Below, in pieces: positions 216-11,370 of a stretch of 64,000 bases of DNA; position 1 is the first letter of the stretch, and every line of letters begins with the position of its first letter. Under the pieces are notes generated by a model that was not told the DNA's origin, searched no databases, and saw only the letters and a list, made by a program, of their open reading frames with translations. Both the position numbers and the translations under genes were made by a program. The stretch comes from Escherichia coli. Lineage in GTDB: Bacteria; Pseudomonadota; Gammaproteobacteria; Enterobacterales; Enterobacteriaceae. The DNA lies in the NCBI RefSeq assembly GCF_024700885.2, contig NZ_CP117016.1; one strand, written 5' to 3'.

Positions 216-1547
216 TTATTTCTGCTGTCTTTTGCCTTTAATACCAAGTAATTTTCTAACATTAATGCTTTCATCTATTTCTCCTTCAATTTTATTTATG
301 ATTTCTTGATTCACTAAATCTGCCTCTTCAAAAGCTTTTAAAGTTTCTTCACTAATATAACGATTGTTATAAATCAAAGCCGTTTTGGAGTTCATTTTCC
401 ACCCCATTCTTACGCATCTGATTCTATCTAATTGGGTCAATCTATATTGATCAGTGACTCCTATGTATTTTAAACTGTAAATATAGTTCCATGTGTGCCG
501 TAGACAATGCCCTGTGAAATTTTGAAAAGATACTCCATTGAATTCAATTCTACTTATTTGCTTAATTACTTTATGATATGCACTTATTGACAGAGGAAAT
601 CCTTCCGTAGGACCAGATTTTTGAGTAATAAATAAGTAATTATGATTTAAGCTTTTCGAATAGAAAGACCTATCATTGTCTATATATGAAGAGATTTGCA
701 TAGACAATTTTTTGCTAATATTTAATTCTCGTTCAAATGTTTTAACAAGTGGTTGAAAAACTCTTGGGTCTGCTGGATCATTTATTCTTTTACAAACTTT
801 CAGATATCTTTTTTCCTTGTTAAAATCAGTAATTTTCAAGTTCAATAGCTCACCCCCTCGCATTCCAGTTTCCTGAAGAATGAGGATTATGAGTTGATTT
901 CTTTTACGGCAACTGATATCAACAAATGGATTGTATTGGCTTTCAGGTTCTATACATTGCAATAGAATGTCTAAGCTTTCTTTTTCTAATGATTTAAAAT
1001 CATTATTCAAATAGAATTGAGAGTTTAATTTTGGTTTATGTTTACGAAAAAGCAAACTAACACTTTTTGATATAATGTTTGTCTCATATATTGTAGTGCT
1101 AAAATATGATTCATAAATCCAAGAAATGTAGGAACTAATTACTGTCAATCTATAATGAAGATTTTCTTGATTGATCTTTTTATACTCTTTTATATCTATA
1201 ACTTTTTGTTTTTTATTTTTAACTCTAAGTTGTTCTGACAATGAATAGATTTCAGTAAAGCTAAGGAAGGTCTTAGATCTAATTCTTTCGATAAGATTTA
1301 TATTTGATTCTATTAGATAATTTTCAAAAGCAATCAAAGTGTAAGCATTTCTCAATACTGTATTAAATGACTTATTCTTTTGCTTATATAGCAAACTAAG
1401 ATATATATTTTGATAATACAATGGCAAACCGTTTTTTGAATCCAAAATCATACAAAATCTGCTTCCATCACTCGCCATTAACTTCTTTACTGAATATCTC
1501 CTATTCATTATCACCCCATAATTTATTTTTTTATTTATAGGTAACAT
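216..1547 (-). mobile_element. Tyrosine site-specific recombinase (phage integrase family), AT-rich foreign gene
   Basis: 443 aa ORF; recombinase motifs seen in translation: ETGMRGGELLNL (box I Arg), GHCLRHTWNY (H-x-x-R), LIYNNRY (candidate catalytic Tyr). Strongly AT-rich codon usage unlike flanking core genes. ATG at 1545-1547. Confidence 0.6.
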
Positions 1548-1680: not shown

Positions 1681-1757
1681 GCGGTAGTAGTTCAGTTGGT
1701 CAGAATATTCCCCTGTCACGGGAATGGTCGTGGGTTCGAGTCCCATCTATCGCGCCA
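1681..1757 (+). tRNA. tRNA-Asp (anticodon GUC), island-borne
   Basis: Manual cloverleaf fold: acceptor GCGGTAG/CTATCGC, D arm GTTC/GAAT, anticodon stem TTCCC/GGGAA with loop CTGTCAC, T arm GTGGG-TTCGAGT-CCCAT, discriminator G, encoded CCA. Confidence 0.7.
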
Positions 1758-1761
1758 GAAA

Positions 1762-1836
1762 GGGCAATTAACTCATTGGTAGAGTGTATCTCTTACAAAG
1801 ATATGGCGGTTGGTTCGATTCCAACATTGCCCACCA
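1762..1836 (+). tRNA. tRNA-Val (anticodon UAC), island-borne
   Basis: Manual fold: acceptor GGGCAAT/ATTGCCC, D arm ACTC/GAGT, anticodon stem TATCT/AGATA with loop CTTACAA, T arm GTTGG-TTCGATT-CCAAC, encoded CCA. Differs from the chromosomal E. coli tRNA-Val sequence as recalled. Confidence 0.7.
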
Positions 1837-2682: not shown

Positions 2683-2714
2683 ATGATGGCGATCTGAAAT
2701 CGCCATCATTTTTC
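2683..2714. terminator. Bidirectional rho-independent terminator between convergent genes
   Basis: Hairpin TGATGGCGAT-cugaa-ATCGCCATCA followed by TTTTT. Confidence 0.5.
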
Positions 2715-4560
2715 AACCTTGATAATCTTCAGCCTCGATACCACAATAAGTTATCATGTTTGTTATTAACGGTATATCATTACAATTCTGCTTGAAAGAC
2801 CTGCCATAACTATTGTTTCTTATTTTACAACGAGTCATTAATACTTCTTCAATGGCTCTTGAAAATGCCACAAAGACTGTTTTTTGATTTTCTATTTGCT
2901 CTTCTTCTTTACCAAAATAGGCACCAGGTTCAAGCCCCACAACGATGACCTTCCTGAACTCTAACCCTTTACTTTTATGGATGGTCATAAGAGGTATTGT
3001 TTTATTGCCAAGTAATAAATCAATGGCTTCTGATGTGTTTTCTTTTACATCTAACTTATCGAGGTGGCGAGAAAGTAATTCTATGCTATATTCTAAAACA
3101 TTCCCACTCATATACTGCGGAAAGTAAGACTTTATTTTATCGACACCAAATATACTTAATAATGAATATAAATAATCGACAATTTCTCCTTTAATTACCC
3201 GATGAGATTTAATAAACTGGCTAAGTTCTTTTTCTAACCGTGTAACATCACCTCTTTTACTTACTCCTCTTATATTACATAGAAGCTCCATTGTAGTGGC
3301 CCAGCTTTCTATGGATTTTCTATTACAGACAAACATTAGCATTTGTAAAAGTAACTGTACTACAGCTTCATTTAAAAGATCCTGATACTCGTTCTCAAGG
3401 CGACATTGTATTTTCAAATATTGCAATGCTGAAATGATATCGTCTGTATATTGTTTAGCCGGGTTTCTTAGCAGTATACATATATCTCTTTCATTTACTC
3501 CTTCAGCAATCCATTGCTGGATACATAATGCTATATATGCCCCTTCAATACTACTTTCGTCAAATTGTAGTAACTTAGCTGAACCTTCATTTTCAATCAA
3601 CATCATATCAGGCTTTATATCAGCATGATTCATGAAAGCTTCCATCATGCGTTGATAATTTATGAGGTTTTTTAATGACCTTCTATTGCTAACTAATTCA
3701 TTAGATTGTTCGATTCCAAAATCTTTTTTAAACACATCAAAAGCATTGTGCATTGCACCTGCCCAACCCATTATTCTTTGTTTTGTATCACCGACTGCTG
3801 TTATTTTTATTTTTTTACCCAAGAAAATGCTCTTAAAAATCTCATATTGCCTATATGTTGTGTCCTGAAACTCATCGATAAAAGCATAGTCATATGTTGA
3901 ATTTATAGCATTAGATAAATATTGATTCCTACTAATAATATAATTAGCAAGAAAATTAATCATCTTGAATGAAATCCTTGATTTTGGTTTTAATAAGTGT
4001 AACCACACAAACCGTCTTATCCTGCCATCAACAGAATGTTCTAATGCTTTATTATAAGGAGTTACTATATAATTCTCTTCAAAATTATAAGGTTGTAATT
4101 TATTTAATTCTTCAGATGTTAAACCTTCAAAGCCTACGGCCTCTCTTTTAATTTCTTCAACTAAATCATTATTATTTGGAAAGATTATTTCATAGTCATT
4201 TGATGGACGATAAGATTCCGGAATAGTGCTTTTAAAGCGATCAACAATACTTTTACAGAATGCATCAAATGTTGTTGATTCAAATTTGTGTCTATATTTT
4301 GTATCAAGCCGTGAGTTTACTCTATCTTGAAGATTTTTGGCCGCATCTTTTTTAAAGGATAATGCAATTATTTTTTTATTGCTGCATTTTCCTGTCTCAA
4401 TCAAGAAACAAGCTTTCTGAGCCAATAATTCTGTTTTACCTGCACCGGGACCAGCAAGAACGAGATTATGCCCTGTACTATTTCGAATTACCCTCATAGC
4501 CTCGTCTTCTACTTCTTGGATATCCTTTAAAACCCAATCGGCATCTTTAATAGTCGGCAT
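2713..4560 (-). CDS. UvrD/PcrA-like superfamily 1 helicase (GajB-like)
   Basis: 615 aa; SF1 helicase motifs in translation: LAGPGAGKTELL (I), IDEFQDTT (II), GDTKQRIMGW (III), VSNRRS (IV), TIHKSKGLEF (V), VAFSRA (VI). ATG overlaps the upstream stop by 1 nt (TAATG). Confidence 0.8.
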   Translation of the reverse strand: MPTIKDADWVLKDIQEVEDEAMRVIRNSTGHNLVLAGPGAGKTELLAQKACFLIETGKCSNKKIIALSFKKDAAKNLQDRVNSRLDTKYRHKFESTTFDAFCKSIVDRFKSTIPESYRPSNDYEIIFPNNNDLVEEIKREAVGFEGLTSEELNKLQPYNFEENYIVTPYNKALEHSVDGRIRRFVWLHLLKPKSRISFKMINFLANYIISRNQYLSNAINSTYDYAFIDEFQDTTYRQYEIFKSIFLGKKIKITAVGDTKQRIMGWAGAMHNAFDVFKKDFGIEQSNELVSNRRSLKNLINYQRMMEAFMNHADIKPDMMLIENEGSAKLLQFDESSIEGAYIALCIQQWIAEGVNERDICILLRNPAKQYTDDIISALQYLKIQCRLENEYQDLLNEAVVQLLLQMLMFVCNRKSIESWATTMELLCNIRGVSKRGDVTRLEKELSQFIKSHRVIKGEIVDYLYSLLSIFGVDKIKSYFPQYMSGNVLEYSIELLSRHLDKLDVKENTSEAIDLLLGNKTIPLMTIHKSKGLEFRKVIVVGLEPGAYFGKEEEQIENQKTVFVAFSRAIEEVLMTRCKIRNNSYGRSFKQNCNDIPLITNMITYCGIEAEDYQG

Positions 4561-6548
4561 TAAAGTAATCCTCTTACTGTTTCGATAATTTCATTAAGAA
4601 CTTCAGGACTATCATCTCTTAACTTATCGTCTTCCATTTTTGATAGAACATAATTGTGCGATAATGGTTTACCTCTTCCTAAAAATAGGTAACGATACCA
4701 AAAATATTTTTCATAATCATCGAACTCACTAATATCAATATCTTTCTCTTCTTTTTTCAAAACTGCAGCAATTGCCGATTTAACTTTATTATCATATTCA
4801 TGATCGTCATCTTTTGGCAATCTTGGCCCACCATTTTTGGGAACAAATGTCTTATAATCCTCAAAGAATTTATTAAGCATTAGCCAATCTAAATCGTAGG
4901 GGTAAGAAAAATAAACATTATAATCTTTTAGACAATTAATCCATGCCGATTCATTATCTTGATCCTCATCCCATGTATGCATTTTTTCAAGCTCTTCATC
5001 ACTTAAAGTTCCTGAAGTAATACTTAACAATTCATTTTTATCTGCACCTATAGATATTAATTGTTTGACTGCATATTTAATTCTTCCCCAACCACCACCT
5101 CCTCCTCTCTTGAAATCATAGTCGAGAAGAGTCACATGTGGAATTGAAAGCTCATTGAGTAACTTCCAAAAATGATTAACATATCGCCCTCCTAATGGAG
5201 CAAATGTTATCAATGAAGTGTCAAGCTCTATACCATTTACTTGAGCTATTTTAGGTATTACTATTTCTTCGCTATCACCTTCACCAAGTATTACAACTTT
5301 TGCAAAATAAATTTCTGGATATGCCTTCACTGCTTCTTTTACATAAGTGAAAGTATCAACATTGTCTCCATCGTCTTCATCTTCGCTTGGTAATAATATT
5401 GGTTTGACAACAGTATTTTTATTATCATGTAGACGAAAATACCTTATATTTTCTGGTTCTACTCTATTGAGTAATGAAGGTGCGTGTGTTGTTAAAACAA
5501 CCTGTGCTCGATCATTCTCAGATATATCTTCACATAGTTTAACTATTCTTCCTAAATATTGGGGTGAAAGATGATTTTCTGGTTCTTCGATTAATATTAT
5601 CGTTAAATTTGGAGGATCTAATGCTTCTACTGATATTGATAATTCATTTTCTCCTGAATTAATGATCTCATCTTCAATATCAAATGCAGATTTGACTAAC
5701 GAAAGATAAAACAATGACTTCATACCATCACTCAATCTTTCAGTTGGTAATGGCTGAGTCACCGGAGTAGGCATAAATACAGTATCTATATGCTTTAATA
5801 CATCTTCTATTCCATTCATTACTGGCTGAATTTTAAGCTGTTCAAAATACCCTCCGCTAAAAAGAGTTTTCCAATTTCTGCCCAATGAAGATGTTATTGT
5901 CTGAACCCCAATTTCTTCTTGGAACTGGTTTCCGATTGATTCTGCAACCTCATCAACCGTTGAACTCATCTGTTCAGACCATTCAACTGCATTTATCAAA
6001 CGGTGCATGATGGTTCCGGCTGTTTGCTTCAGTTGTTGAGCAGGATCGCGATAAGCAGGGACATAATGAACATGGATTTTTGATCTTTCATATGCTGTAA
6101 TATTTTTTTCATATTCTCCTATTTCCCATACTAAATCACTATCTATATCCCCTTCTGCAAGATTAGTTTTTGTCCATTTAGCTTTTAATTTTGCTATACA
6201 GTATGGGATCTGGTCTGCTTCATTTGAGACCAAATGCTTAAAGAAATCAGCGACTGAATCGTCCTCACCATCTTGCAGATCTGCAAATTCAAATTTTACA
6301 CGAACTGATAATTCTCTTTCATCTTGAGTATCGATTTCATCTCCAGGAGGAACATAAAAATCATCAACTTGAACAATTCTATCGGAGCTTTTGACACCAA
6401 ACATCCTTGTCAATGCGAGGAGAACAGCCGTCTTACCTGTTCCATTCCCTCCAATTAAGCTGGTGAATGAATTTATATTTATAGTTTGCCCTACATTATC
6501 AAAGCTCTTAAAACCTTTGATCTCCATTTGTGTAATTTTCATTATCAC
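4560..6548 (-). CDS. OLD-family ABC-type ATPase with C-terminal TOPRIM nuclease domain (GajA-like)
   Basis: 662 aa ORF from a GTG; likelier ATG start at 6542 with GAGGTG Shine-Dalgarno. Walker A GGNGTGKT, ILIEEPENHLSP (Walker B/D-loop typical of OLD ATPases), VLTTHAP (H-loop), TOPRIM-like VVILGEGDSEEIV and LLDYDFKRGGGGGWG. Confidence 0.8.
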   Translation of the reverse strand: MIMKITQMEIKGFKSFDNVGQTININSFTSLIGGNGTGKTAVLLALTRMFGVKSSDRIVQVDDFYVPPGDEIDTQDERELSVRVKFEFADLQDGEDDSVADFFKHLVSNEADQIPYCIAKLKAKWTKTNLAEGDIDSDLVWEIGEYEKNITAYERSKIHVHYVPAYRDPAQQLKQTAGTIMHRLINAVEWSEQMSSTVDEVAESIGNQFQEEIGVQTITSSLGRNWKTLFSGGYFEQLKIQPVMNGIEDVLKHIDTVFMPTPVTQPLPTERLSDGMKSLFYLSLVKSAFDIEDEIINSGENELSISVEALDPPNLTIILIEEPENHLSPQYLGRIVKLCEDISENDRAQVVLTTHAPSLLNRVEPENIRYFRLHDNKNTVVKPILLPSEDEDDGDNVDTFTYVKEAVKAYPEIYFAKVVILGEGDSEEIVIPKIAQVNGIELDTSLITFAPLGGRYVNHFWKLLNELSIPHVTLLDYDFKRGGGGGWGRIKYAVKQLISIGADKNELLSITSGTLSDEELEKMHTWDEDQDNESAWINCLKDYNVYFSYPYDLDWLMLNKFFEDYKTFVPKNGGPRLPKDDDHEYDNKVKSAIAAVLKKEEKDIDISEFDDYEKYFWYRYLFLGRGKPLSHNYVLSKMEDDKLRDDSPEVLNEIIETVRGLL

Positions 6549-7195
6549 CTCAATTGCTGTTTTAAAAAATTATAATCACTAATTATTTCTGCGTTTGTAA
6601 TGATTTCTTGTGAGCACAGCTTAAAACATTCTAAAAATATATTTTTATTATCGTTATGTTCCCAATGTTTTTTCAAAGCTTCTTCAATTGAAATCCAAAT
6701 AACTTGAAAATCGTTATTAGATATTTGGCTTGTTAAAACTGTTTCTTCCACACAAAGTATATGCCCTAAGATGACATCATCGTATATGTCAGTATCTGAA
6801 TCTCTAACTCCTAACCTTTTTATTTTCCTTTTTTGGATGATTTTATTTTTAACAATAAAAGGATGTTCTTCTATAAAATCGGTCAATGATGTAAAAGCCA
6901 AGCCACGAACCTGAGCACCATGCATTGAACTATTTACTTTATGGATATCTCTCCAAACTCGCAGATCACCTAATACATAGAGAACCCGCTGATTTCTCGC
7001 TTTCGTATCTTCTGCTTGGTATTGGATATAAGGTGGCCCTCCCCCATTTTGTCTATATCGGGCAAGGGTTTTGATGCTTATGCCAAGAAAGACAGAAGCA
7101 AGCTCACTATTTACAGTGGCAGAATCAGGCATTTGACCAAATAGTTTCCATACCTCTGAATACTCCCGCAAAACTTCCACCACACTCATCTTCAC
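6545..7195 (-). CDS. HTH-domain protein (excisionase/MerR-like N-terminus plus uncharacterised ~130 aa C-terminal domain), first gene of the defense operon
   Basis: 216 aa ORF (GTG at 7195 or ATG at 7189). N-terminal ELASVFLGISIKTLARYRQNGGGPPYIQY resembles excisionase-type HTH. Starts within 2 nt of the integrase stop and ends 2 nt before the GajA-like start. Confidence 0.5.
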   Translation of the reverse strand: MKMSVVEVLREYSEVWKLFGQMPDSATVNSELASVFLGISIKTLARYRQNGGGPPYIQYQAEDTKARNQRVLYVLGDLRVWRDIHKVNSSMHGAQVRGLAFTSLTDFIEEHPFIVKNKIIQKRKIKRLGVRDSDTDIYDDVILGHILCVEETVLTSQISNNDFQVIWISIEEALKKHWEHNDNKNIFLECFKLCSQEIITNAEIISDYNFLKQQLR

Positions 7196-8655
7196 TCCCT
7201 CGTTTCAGGTAATGGAGGATACTTAGCCGAAGCAAGTAACACATTGTATAATTTAGGAGCAGTCATAAGCATATGCAACTCAATCCTTTGTAATGCTTCA
7301 AAAATCCGTTCTTGATCAGGTTCTGCATACCTTTCTGTTGGATCTGTTGTATTTCTGTGATTGAGCAGTCTCTTAACGACGGCATATGAAACAAGTTCTT
7401 CAGCAACCCTACCAAATGTCCTTCGTAGATCATGCATACCAAGCTTCAGGATTCCCGCCTCTTGGCAGATATATTCCCTTAGACTTTTACTATCGGAATA
7501 GTGACCAACTTTACTTCGAGAAGAACGGGCCGGGAAAACCCACTTCTGTTTGTCCTTCTGGGTTACCGTATCGTTTACTATGTCTCTTCTATCTTCCAAA
7601 ATTCTTTTGACAGCATCACAAATCGGAAGCTCGTGATCGTTTCGATTCTTAGTGTCGTAAAAACGGATAGTTCTGTTACTCAGGTCAACATAGCTTGTCG
7701 TTTTAGCTTCTTCCTTTGTAAGAGACTCTCGCCAACACAGAGAAGCTGTTTCTTCCTTACGAGCACCTAAGAGAACGGTAAGTAGCAGATAATCGCACCC
7801 AAGCCGGTTGAAGCTTCTCTTGTTGAACAATGCAGTCAAGAACCGACCAAGTGTATCCTTTGGTGATAAGGGGTTTCTGACACCTTTTGCCCGATAACTA
7901 TCCTCAAGCTCAGAACGTGTCCTAAACTTTTTCTGTACCTTTAAGATACTGAAAGGGTTGTAAGATAGAGAAGGTTGTCGTTGCTGGGTCTGAGCATTCC
8001 CAGCTTCAATCTCTATTGCGTGTTTTACAGCAACATTCGCCCACCTAAAGGTCTGTTCCGCTGCTGTTCTGGCTCTTGAAGCAATCTCATCAAACTTCCT
8101 AAGAATTTCATTACCAGTAAGATCTTTAACTCGCAAACCAGCCCACTCAGAAAGCCTGTTTTCTGCTTTATCTAATACAGCCAAGGTGTTGGGTTTAGCT
8201 GGTTTCGCTCTACCCAGCAGATGCTGGCGGTATTGTGCAAACACTTCACTGATAGTGAGTTCAGAAGCATCGGACTCCCGTTTTATTTTGTTAGGGTTCC
8301 TTTTGGTCAACTTCATGGTTTGAACTAAATTGCGAGCAACCTCGCGGGCTTGATCGATGTTAGCGAAATCAGAGACATTGCCAATTGTAGACCTGATAAC
8401 CTCAGATGGGGATTTTCCCCCTGTCTTAGGGCGATTGCCAGGAGAAGAGACTCGTCGCTGAACGATATAGGTCTTTTTCGTTGCACTGATTTTGACACCA
8501 AAACCAACGGGTGAATCCCGGTGATTATCAGTGATAAGATACGGTTTTCGCTCTGGATTGGGTAAGTAGACTACTCTGCCTTGCGGATCAAGGCTCGGTT
8601 TCACGTCGATAGATAACTTATTGATTATAATCGACTGATTGAGTGTCATTTTCAT
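7192..8655 (-). mobile_element. int: P4-type tyrosine integrase
   Basis: ORF track 7192..8763; trimmed to internal ATG (MKMTLNQ...) at 8653-8655. N-terminal arm-binding-like region (YLITDNHRDSPVGFGVKISATKKTYIVQRR), box I ARKEE, HDLRRTF, C-terminal ERY. Near-host GC, unlike the cargo. Confidence 0.8.
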
Positions 8656-8658
8656 CGA

Positions 8659-8717
8659 TGTATACCAGTGGTTCAAGTGTGTATACCAGATAGTAGCTAG
8701 AATACTTCTGGTATACA
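8659..8717. repeat. Three copies of TGTATACCAG (two direct, one inverted) at the integrase 5-prime end; candidate integrase-binding or att-associated sites
   Basis: Exact 10-mers at 8659-8668 and 8680-8689 (direct) and 8708-8717 (inverted), between the integrase start and mutS. Confidence 0.45.
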
Positions 8718-8787
8718 AATTTATGGGTTTATGTGAGTTTAAAGGGGTATCACTTGGGGCCACATAAGTACTCAGAAGACTTTAAAA

Positions 8788-11370
8788 ATGAGTAAAATCA
8801 ATATGAAAGAGTCTGCAAGCAAGGATCTATCAGACCACACTCCTATGATGCAGCAATATCTCAAGCTGAAAGCCCAGCATCCCGAGATCCTGCTGTTTTA
8901 CCGGATGGGTGATTTTTATGAACTGTTTTATGACGACGCAAAACGCGCGTCGCAACTGCTGGATATTTCACTGACCAAACGCGGTGCTTCGGCGGGAGAG
9001 CCGATCCCGATGGCGGGGATCCCCTACCATGCGGTGGAAAACTACCTCGCCAAACTGGTGAATCAGGGCGAGTCCGTTGCCATCTGCGAACAAATTGGCG
9101 ATCCGGCGACCAGCAAAGGTCCGGTTGAGCGCAAAGTTGTGCGTATCGTTACGCCAGGCACCATCAGCGATGAAGCCCTGTTGCAGGAGCGTCAGGACAA
9201 CCTGCTGGCGGCTATCTGGCAGGACAGCAAAGGTTTCGGCTACGCGACGCTGGATATCAGTTCCGGGCGTTTTCGCCTGAGCGAACCGGCTGACCGCGAA
9301 ACGATGGCGGCAGAGCTGCAACGCACTAATCCGGCAGAGCTGTTGTATGCAGAAAATTTCGCCGAGATGTCGCTGATTGAAGGTCGTCGCGGACTGCGCC
9401 GTCGCCCGCTATGGGAGTTTGAAATCGACACCGCGCGCCAGCAGTTGAATCTGCAATTTGGCACCCGCGATCTGGTCGGTTTTGGCGTCGAGAACGCGCC
9501 GCGCGGACTTTGTGCTGCCGGTTGTCTGTTGCAGTATGCGAAAGATACCCAACGTACGACTCTGCCGCATATTCGTTCCATCACCATGGAACGTGAGCAG
9601 GACAGCATCATTATGGATGCCGCGACGCGTCGTAATCTGGAAATCACCCAGAACCTGGCGGGTGGTGCGGAAAATACGCTGGCTTCTGTGCTCGACTGCA
9701 CCGTCACGCCGATGGGCAGCCGTATGCTGAAACGCTGGCTGCATATGCCAGTGCGCGATACCCGCGTCTTGCTTGAGCGCCAGCAAACTATTGGCGCATT
9801 GCAGGATTTCACCGCCGAGCTGCAGCCGGTACTGCGTCAGGTCGGCGACCTGGAACGTATTCTGGCGCGTCTGGCTTTACGAACTGCTCGCCCACGCGAT
9901 CTGGCCCGTATGCGTCACGCTTTCCAGCAACTGCCGGAGCTGCGTGCGCTATTAGAAAATGTCGATAGCGCTCCGGTACAGGCGCTGCGTGAAAAAATGG
10001 GCGAGTTTGCCGAGCTGCGCGATCTGCTGGAGCGAGCAATCATCGACACACCGCCAGTGCTGGTACGCGACGGTGGTGTTATCGCACCGGGCTATAACGA
10101 AGAGCTGGATGAGTGGCGCGCGCTGGCTGACGGCGCGACCGATTATCTGGAGCGTCTGGAAGTCCGCGAGCGTGAACGTACTGGCCTGGACACCCTGAAA
10201 GTCGGCTTTAACGCGGTTCATGGTTATTACATTCAGATCAGCCGTGGACAAAGCCATCTGGCACCCATCAATTACATGCGTCGCCAGACGCTGAAAAACG
10301 CCGAGCGCTACATTATTCCAGAGCTAAAAGAGTACGAAGACAAAGTTCTCACTTCAAAAGGCAAAGCACTGGCACTGGAAAAACAGCTTTATGAAGAGTT
10401 GTTCGACCTGCTGTTGCCGCATCTGGAAGCGTTGCAACAGAGCGCGAGCGCGCTGGCGGAACTCGACGTGCTGGTGAACCTGGCAGAACGGGCCTATACG
10501 CTGAACTACACCTGCCCGACCTTTATTGATAAACCGGGTATTCGCATCACCGAAGGCCGCCATCCGGTGGTTGAACAGGTGCTGAATGAGCCGTTTATCG
10601 CCAACCCGCTGAACCTGTCGCCGCAGCGTCGCATGTTGATCATTACCGGTCCGAATATGGGCGGTAAAAGTACCTATATGCGCCAGACCGCACTGATTGC
10701 GCTGATGGCCTACATCGGCAGCTATGTACCGGCACAAAAAGTCGAGATTGGACCTATCGATCGCATCTTTACCCGCGTAGGGGCAGCGGATGATCTGGCA
10801 TCCGGGCGTTCAACCTTTATGGTGGAAATGACCGAAACCGCCAATATTTTACATAACGCCACCGAGTACAGTCTGGTGCTGATGGATGAGATTGGGCGCG
10901 GGACGTCCACTTACGATGGTCTGTCGCTGGCGTGGGCGTGCGCGGAAAATCTGGCGAATAAGATTAAAGCGTTGACACTGTTTGCCACCCACTATTTCGA
11001 GCTGACCCAGTTACCGGAGAAAATGGAAGGCGTCGCCAACGTGCATCTCGATGCGCTGGAGCACGGCGACACCATTGCCTTTATGCACAGCGTGCAGGAT
11101 GGCGCGGCGAGCAAAAGCTACGGCCTGGCGGTTGCAGCTCTGGCAGGCGTGCCAAAAGAGGTTATTAAGCGCGCACGGCAAAAACTGCGTGAGCTGGAAA
11201 GCATTTCGCCGAACGCCGCCGCTACGCAAGTGGATGGTACGCAAATGTCTTTGCTGTCAGTGCCAGAAGAAACGTCGCCTGCGGTCGAGGCACTGGAAAA
11301 CCTCGACCCGGATTCACTGACTCCGCGTCAGGCGCTGGAGTGGATTTATCGCTTGAAGAGTCTGGTGTAA
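8788..11370 (+). CDS. mutS: DNA mismatch repair protein MutS, with a non-K-12 N-terminus
   Basis: 860 aa; near-identical to E. coli MutS from about residue 17 (HTPMMQQYL...). First ~16 residues ([16 protein letters not shown]) differ from the K-12 N-terminus (MSAIENFDA, from memory). Confidence 0.95.

Follow-up and report, generated by a model that had tools for sequence, protein, structure and literature searches.

Probable integrase arm-type sites in the attachment site of a mutS-targeting mobilizable island of Escherichia coli

The island and the rebuilt mutS gene

The window, that is, the whole 64-kb stretch of E. coli DNA analysed here, is 100% identical to the sequence of strain MLI114 (full record L001; window coordinate = L001 − 13001). 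Positions 1 to ~8844 form the right part of an AT-rich island with 30–44% GC vs ~52%, which in L001 is ~17.9 kb long and lies between ygbA and mutS. Read from the mutS end, the island contains int, the 216-aa ORF2, a Gabija system, tRNA-Asp and tRNA-Val genes, two more tyrosine recombinases and a relaxase (Table 1); it is a mobilizable, integrative, mutS-targeting element with Gabija as cargo.

Table 1 Features of the island end and of the adjoining mutS gene (window coordinates)
Feature	Coordinates	Strand	Remarks
Two overlapping tyrosine-recombinase genes, then genes for ~548-aa and ~127-aa proteins	216..1547, continuing left (L001 9896–14509)	−	
tRNA-Asp(GTC) and tRNA-Val(TAC)	1681..1836	+	Between Gabija and the second recombinase module
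Gabija, complete	2713..6548	−	GajA 4560–6548 (E 2e-240); GajB 2713–4560 (E 3e-198)
ORF2, 216 aa	6545..7195	−	Start overlaps the int stop by 4 nt; excisionase-like N-terminal HTH
int, 487-aa tyrosine integrase	7192..8655	−	Pfam Phage_integrase (PF00589), E 1e-11
P1, predicted arm-type site TGTATACCAG	8659..8668	+	Exact; −4 to −13 from the int start codon
P2, predicted arm-type site TGTATACCAG	8680..8689	+	Exact here; least conserved copy
P3a, degenerate fourth copy	8697..8706	−	Plus strand CTAGAATACT, reverse complement AGTATTCTAG; 7/10 matches
P3 (P3b), predicted arm-type site, plus strand CTGGTATACA	8708..8717	−	Exact inverted copy
Conserved spacer, P3 to mutS start	8718..8802	.	Common to both island types (20 attR regions aligned), many genera
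Island-supplied replacement mutS 5′ end	8803..8844	+	Replaces MSAIENFDAHTP...; ~14 codons exchanged
Core / crossover region ATGATGCAGCAATA	8845..8858	+	Identity block of attL, attR and attB; encodes MMQQY of MutS
mutS, chimeric, intact	8803..11370	+	Pfam MutS_I to MutS_V; RefSeq annotation in L001

The ends of the island were defined by comparing attL, attR and attB, the last taken from K-12; the far end lies outside the window and was taken from the identical record L001. Genomes with an empty site match the window only from ~8835 onward, and a 14-bp core, ATGATGCAGCA(G/A)TA, is common to both island ends and the K-12 attB. At attL, ...ATGATGCAGCAGTA is followed by island DNA in 13/13 far ends (10 from E. 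coli and three from other genera), and at attR the chromosomal mutS resumes after the same core block. The same junctions were found in all ten E. coli islands as well as in Pectobacterium, Serratia and Brenneria. The recurrence of identical junctions in many genera shows that integration is site-specific; an intact attB is common. The repeats described below had been placed at the island–chromosome junction when the sequence was first read, but the junction is located 137–186 bp further on, inside mutS.

At the far junction, the native mutS promoter and first codons (MSAIENFDAHTPMMQQ) pass into island DNA directly after the core, ~18 kb away from the rest of the gene (L001 3974–4024). At the window end, the frame stays open and MutS retains its five domains; thus, the comparison of junctions indicates that the island enters mutS within its 5′ coding end and, rather than disrupting the gene, reconstitutes it, which the sequence-only reading had missed. 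Integrase clades that target mutS have been described, and it was suggested that their insertions inactivate the gene (Mageeney et al. 2020, PMC7192596); in contrast, the frame and domains are preserved here, and this qualifies that idea. Arm sites were not described in that study.

Because the native promoter is left so far away, mutS must be expressed from island DNA, and the spacer between P3 and the mutS start must hold or adjoin a substitute promoter. A consensus scan of 8500–8900 found no consensus sigma-70 promoter for int or mutS, and a permissive scan of the 20 aligned attR regions found no conserved −35/−10 pair on either strand. The spacer, AAATTTATGGGTTTATGTGnGTTTAAAGGGGTTTCACnTGGGGCCAC...GAGTAAAATCAATATG, carries GGGTTT/GAGTTT-like repeats with a period of ~10–11 bp, which may be sites for a recombination directionality factor (RDF) or may belong to the substitute mutS promoter; sites for accessory proteins may also lie in the spacer. 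The whole int–mutS interval is bracketed by a 14-nt inverted repeat, TATTGATTATAATC at 8619–8632 and GAGTAAAATCAATA at 8790–8803, which is 86% complementary; its arms fall in early int codons and at the mutS start, and it could have arisen by chance.

In the attR flank just after the core (8859–8866), four islands have CTCAAG (Lys), while K-12 and two other islands have CTCAGG (Arg). We considered a displaced crossover and rejected it, since L006 and L007 have CTCAGG, so that the difference is a flanking polymorphism. Because this flank differs among islands, it suggests that some of them moved from strain to strain along with adjacent mutS sequence through homologous recombination, not by fresh integration.

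A repeated word in both arms of the island

Between int and the core, in the region that we call the P arm, the word TGTATACCAG is present in three exact copies, which are the only ones in the window. The triplication reported in the sequence-only reading is therefore borne out, with 3 exact matches observed against a mean of 0.06 in dinucleotide-preserving shuffles, and so is the arrangement that it gave, since the direct copies P1 and P2 are 21 bp apart from start to start and P3 is inverted. The motif had also been described as lying just upstream of the integrase start and ~70 bp before mutS. Indeed, P1 begins 3 nt away from the annotated int start codon (ATG at 8655–8653, minus strand), and the distance from the end of P3 to mutS is 71 nt if measured to its first in-frame ATG (8788) and 86 nt if measured to the annotated start (8803). 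The count of three holds for exact copies, but a fourth, degenerate copy, P3a, was missed; it sits 11 bp before P3, with which it forms a tandem pair. A near-perfect copy, CCGGTATAC, stands at the P3a position in E. coli AH65, Salmonella diarizonae and Tatumella (L007, L010 and L027 in the 20-junction alignment).

The copies are not equally conserved. P1 is invariant in 6/6 E. coli islands of the same type and in the loci of Dickeya, Citrobacter, Salmonella, Brenneria and Erwinia/Pantoea, and P3 is unchanged in the same number of E. coli islands, in each of which it is the top match of a crude weight matrix (PWM) built from P1 and P3. In relatives, P2 drifts to CGAG, TGGG, CCCG or TGTATTCTTG, and because of this drift it is probably a weaker or dispensable site. 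A chance repeat, or the relic of a transposon or IS end without current function, could be proposed for the three copies in view of the P2 drift and of the repeat-prone nature of AT-rich island DNA. Against this, 0/100 shuffles reach three copies, and P1 and P3 are invariant across several genera and among islands with integrase divergence of up to 20%.

The sequence-only reading had put forward a search of the far end of the island for the same word as a check, and this search found a one-mismatch copy together with a weaker one, 73–93 bp inside the junction. In L001, TGTATACCAT is at 4092–4101 (P′2) and the weaker copy, AGTAAACCAG, at 4081–4090, 11 bp from it; both are oriented as P3 and cover +73..+93 from the first core base. 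With the same matrix, trained on P1 and P3, the four best matches in the 17.9-kb island are P3, P1, P2 and the far-end P′2. Weak motif-like words at L001 6308–6382 were set aside as chance matches, as their scores are much lower than those of the arm sites and no core lies next to them.

We then find the same layout in other islands. Five further E. coli islands have integrases that are 80–96% identical at the DNA level and different cargo (DRT3, retron Ec48, retron Eco8). Their far arms are practically unalignable, yet ATGGnATACAT is at +81..+94 in 5/5, and a weaker copy precedes it by 11 bp in all five. The far ends of Serratia quinivorans, Brenneria and Pectobacterium fontis show the same word and layout, so that ATG(G/A)nATAC lies at about +81..+94 from the core in 9/9 window-type far ends (E. 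coli, Serratia, Brenneria, Pectobacterium). A repeated word distinct from the core is thus present on both arms. In addition, an IHF-type element similar to WATCAAnnnnTTR, identified as a consensus match only, is located at +29..+31 in 7/13 far arms with ≤1 mismatch and in 10/13 with ≤2; the background of such matches is 0.17 anywhere in 61 nt of island.

A second word and the N-terminal domain of the integrase

A scan of one genome per species yielded 25 loci, nearly all with an integrase gene divergent from mutS. Many of them keep TGTATACCAG, while ten enterobacterial loci do not (Citrobacter, Yokenella, Pseudocitrobacter, Yersinia, Rahnella, Erwinia dacicola, Serratia nevei, Klebsiella michiganensis). 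In these islands, termed type B, the same positions of the P arm are occupied by TGTAGCCCA, once direct, and then by TGGGCTACA and GAGCTACA, inverted and 11 bp apart; P3a aligns with GGGCTACA of the TGTAGCCCA-type islands. The locus of the betaproteobacterium Methylotenera, with an Int that is 55% identical, is also without TGTATACCAG and carries TGTAGCCCA in the layout of type B. A layout that is retained with a different word in a betaproteobacterium is hard to reconcile with a chance repeat or a relic; together with the conservation of P1 and P3, these comparative data effectively refute that explanation, which we regard as extremely improbable.

Among complete E. coli genomes, type B is at mutS in 84 vs 51 for the window type, and the two types together account for the ~133 genomes that have an island-type mutS 5′ end. 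The type-B far ends of four strains (H1, 4/4, M159-1 and 97.3) were compared, two of these ends being 85% alike, and only 11 of the 84 type-B genomes share one far-end sequence. At +83..+94 the four far ends have ATAAGCTACT, ATAGGCTACT, ATAGGCTACA and ATGGGCTACT, respectively, and AT(A/G)(A/G)GCTAC is common to 4/4. An arm word is therefore at about +81..+94 in 13/13 islands of both types, amid otherwise unalignable DNA. The base before TAC is A in 9/9 window-type arms and C in 4/4 type-B arms (Fisher exact 1/715, which becomes about 1/120 once near-duplicate arms are merged). From these alignments, the word switches in both arms together, and the P and P′ arms are 14–25 kb apart when the island is integrated and meet only in the excised circle.

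To place the protein encoded by int, we used an exhaustive search, which retrieved 544 relatives at E ≤ 1e-10, and aligned the 52 full-length ones (26–84% identity). R299, K336, H408, R411, H433 and Y443 are invariant in this alignment; this and the PF00589 match assign the product to the tyrosine recombinase superfamily by sequence. Its N-terminal region (residues 44–127) matches Arm-DNA-bind_3 (PF13356) with E 0.009, its 16.5 bits falling short of the 27 that Pfam requires, while 40/52 aligned homologues match this family (E ≤ 0.001; best 1e-16). PF13356, formerly DUF4102, is the arm-binding domain of P4-like or CP4-57-type integrases, and the earlier guess of a P4-type integrase fits with these matches: as in P4-like integrases, PF13356 and PF00589 occur together in those 40 homologues, and the R-K-H-R-H-Y set is invariant. 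The window Int differs from P4-like integrases in that it falls below the PF13356 cutoff, is longer at 487 aa, includes an additional helix and hairpin near its N-terminus (residues 7–32), and targets a protein-coding gene, not a tRNA gene.

An AF2 model of Int, built on the alignment of the 52 relatives, has a mean pLDDT of 92.9. Its N-domain, in which strands 39–43, 52–56, 61–70 and 84–93 are packed on helix 100–117, precedes the core-binding and catalytic domains. A search with the Int sequence against PDB chains returned nothing useful, whereas the best Foldseek matches to the model in the PDB are integrases, including full-length lambda Int. In the whole-model Foldseek comparison, full-length lambda Int chains align over 430–440 columns vs ~325 for the 75–356 construct, which fits a matching N-domain in the model. 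On the basis of family matches and model, residues ~1–130 are assigned as the predicted arm-binding N-domain and the remainder as the core-binding and catalytic domains.

The integrases of the two island types differ mainly in this N-domain. Identity between type-B and window Ints is 58–70% in residues 1–130 and 84–99% in 131–487, and window-type Ints are 85–100% identical in residues 1–80 even when their catalytic halves are at 72–90%. With Methylotenera included, 15/15 columns that discriminate the two types fall in residues 1–130 and none in 131–487 (positions 3, 23, 25, 27, 31, 41, 42, 44, 58, 82, 85, 88, 90, 98 and 116); residues 41, 42 and 44 and residues 85, 88 and 90 are on the predicted strands 39–43 and 84–93. 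The island of strain 4/4 is a natural chimera, with P and P′ arms of type B and a Gabija backbone as in the window. Its Int residues 1–130 are 65% identical to the window's and 88% to type B, while residues 131 to the end are 93% and ORF2 98% identical to the window's. Of the candidates compared, the N-terminal region of Int alone tracks the word, and the catalytic domains do not. The coding sequence of the N-domain abuts the P arm, so the co-variation of the two could be partly due to linkage; independent support comes only from the distant P′ arm, with four type-B far ends compared.

ORF2 was the other candidate for a reader of the word. HTH_17 is matched by six members of its family (E 3e-4 to 0.09, all below the Pfam cutoff), and one homologue matches phrog_66, "excisionase and transcriptional regulator", with E 5e-4. 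The N-terminus is conserved and has the look of an excisionase/MerR-type HTH (LGISIKTLARYRQNGGGPPYIQY...LGDLRVWRD), while the C-terminal half is variable; ORF2 is thus a plausible candidate RDF. As a reader of the word it was rejected, since ORF2 type and word type are uncoupled in strain 4/4 and in AH65, where the window-type island (L007) encodes an ORF2 with 83% identity to one of type B and 44% to that of the window. Strain FCI51 has a gene for an HNH endonuclease between int and its ORF2 homologue.

These comparisons also bear on whether the repeats could be an operator for a separate island regulator such as ORF2, controlling divergent int and mutS promoters and having no role in recombination. 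The position of the sites between two divergent genes and over the int leader, the 16-nt imperfect palindrome that includes P2 and P3, and the excisionase-type HTH in ORF2 would all suit an operator. Yet the far end, 14–25 kb off, has the word too, at a constant spacing from the core, and there is nothing to regulate there. ORF2 is nearly the same in the TGTATACCAG island of the window and in the TGTAGCCCA island of strain 4/4, while the window-type island L007 has a type-B-like ORF2. The sites are thus neither confined to the promoter region nor tracking ORF2, and we consider a pure operator quite improbable, a judgement that covers ORF2 among the possible regulators; an HTH protein is also annotated in L007 and in type-B islands.

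In the same way, the inverted copies might be the stem of an RNA (or cruciform) hairpin in the int or mutS leader that governs stability, termination or translation, with the identity of the copies a by-product of pairing. The hairpin predicted for the int-sense strand has −17.9 kcal/mol and a z of −3.5, and z is still −3.1 in one type-B island, where both arms have changed. However, such a potential arises automatically from inverted protein sites, and no terminator-like T-run was found. A hairpin leaves the direct copies P1 and P2, the tandem P3a and P3, the co-varying far-end sites and the tracking of a protein domain unexplained, and this makes it improbable as the reason for the repeats.

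A lambda-type attachment site and its setting

We observed the anatomy of the two arms, the presence of the word at both ends, its concerted switching and its co-variation with the N-domain of Int. The last three support the reading of the repeats as integrase binding sites that had been offered before, and we conclude that the TGTATACCAG copies are very probably integrase arm-type sites in the lambda-type att site of a mutS-targeting mobilizable island. In such a site, the core-binding and catalytic domains of Int would act on the 14-bp core in mutS, while the N-domain (~1–130) would dock on P1, P2, P3a and P3, 137–186 bp from the core beside int, and on the two P′ words, 73–93 bp from the core at the other island end. 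In the excised circle, the P and P′ arms would flank the core with a predicted junction ...CCTATGATGCAGCA(G/A)TACCATTTT..., and a bend at the IHF-like element at ~+30 would let Int bridge arm and core sites in a lambda-type intasome for integration and excision. Int binding, the DNA bend, present-day excision and the autoregulation discussed below are steps that we infer from this anatomy.

We looked for the junction of an excised island. A synthetic attP has no contiguous match in PLSDB, where the only match is a misfiled Salmonella chromosomal mutS region; in 5,426 complete E. coli genomes there is no excised attP or tandem junction (no place covers ≥80%), and a degenerate attP pattern has 0 matches in metagenome contigs. 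Low-frequency excision may be compatible with the absence of a P-core-P′ junction from assemblies.

In lambda attP, the arm-type sites P1, P2 and P′1–P′3 are bound by the N-terminal domain of Int, and IHF bends the DNA. The island resembles this system in its short words unlike the core, which occur in several copies on both sides within ~280 bp and in tandem ~11 bp apart, in the IHF-like element between the core and the P′ sites, and in its three-domain integrase. It differs in the word and the integrase clade, as the island Int is ~15% identical to lambda Int in the structural alignment. Furthermore, the island int points away from the core, so that the P arm overlaps the int leader, and the element enters a protein gene at its 5′ coding end, which it rebuilds; the arm sites here are predicted ones. 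Islands with dusA-specific integrases enter a housekeeping gene at its 5′ end and restore it. The mutS island resembles them in inserting site-specifically close to the start of a conserved gene, for which it provides a substitute 5′ end.

The geometry of the island forces the int promoter into the arm (8656–8845). Since P1 is at −4 to −13 and the whole int upstream region is inside the arm, Int bound to the P-arm sites over its own leader would likely repress int as well, which would give the same sites an operator function as a second role. There is a precedent in the IntS/TorI system of KplE1 (CPS-53), where arm-type sites overlap the intS promoter and cause negative autoregulation (Panis et al. 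2010, PMC2951348). In both, the int promoter and leader necessarily fall within an attachment arm, arm sites are near the int start and there is an HTH excisionase-like partner. The KplE1 arm is attL beside a tRNA gene, and a small, separate protein serves as RDF there, whereas the island targets mutS and its candidate RDF of ~200 aa is co-transcribed with int.

A mobile island at the start of a mismatch-repair gene has also been described in Streptococcus pyogenes, where SpyCI in the 5′ end of mutL separates mutL from its promoter and acts as a growth-phase mutator switch (PMC3430984). The mutS island may likewise influence the expression of its target, although unlike SpyCI it rebuilds the gene. 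As mutS would be transcribed from the ~150-bp P arm bearing predicted sites for Int and possibly RDF, the occupancy of the arm by these proteins, and hence the excision state, could tune the expression of the relocated mutS and the host mutation rate. This extrapolation from the layout seems unlikely to us. If true, it would be an enterobacterial counterpart of the SpyCI–mutL switch on a defence island that ~2.5% of complete E. coli genomes carry.

The fhlA–mutS interval (SPI-1 locus) was identified as an island hotspot without a recognisable integration site in a 2020 study (PMC7232297), and the att site proposed here would supply a mechanism for it. In the literature that we searched, with incomplete coverage, we found no description of these mutS-island arm sites. 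The analysis gives the att-site anatomy (core, P and P′ words, a probable site of bending) of an integrase family by which defence islands are inserted at the start of mutS, and it leaves the known picture of tyrosine integrase action unchanged. The two co-varying pairs of word and N-domain point to ~15 residues that may set arm-site specificity and would be useful for orthogonal integrases; if the pairs are what they seem, they are a ready-made natural specificity code for Arm-DNA-bind_3.

Such islands are carried by ~135 of the 5,426 complete E. coli genomes, and loci are also found in >12 other genera. Sister islands have, at the same two cargo positions, DRT3, retron Ec48 with ABC-3C, retron Eco8, Kiwa, a type I R-M system or DUF4297/HerA; the islands are a family of integrative mobilizable elements with defence cargo. 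The tRNA-Asp/tRNA-Val pair is also present in strain 4/4 and is absent from the otherwise similar island of 19KM2415N. The module of two recombinases is conserved in several islands of both word types and absent from AH65 and H1-type islands; possible interpretations are a nested element and a second module for recombination.

Tatumella sp. JGM91 has two int 5′ ends with P arms in one genome (L031 and L027). In L031, P1 and P2 are partly deleted, and the mutS-like segment gives way to unrelated DNA after ...CCAATGATACATTGG; this locus could be a decayed second copy or an insertion at a secondary site. Finally, Pectobacterium fontis (L026), Serratia quinivorans (L028), Brenneria (L030) and Samsonia (L032) have 4–5-kb or truncated islands with a partial int. 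These short islands look like decaying remnants and thus suggest that the mutS site has been repeatedly occupied and eroded; in L026, L028 and L030, attL, attR and the P′ words are still recognisable.
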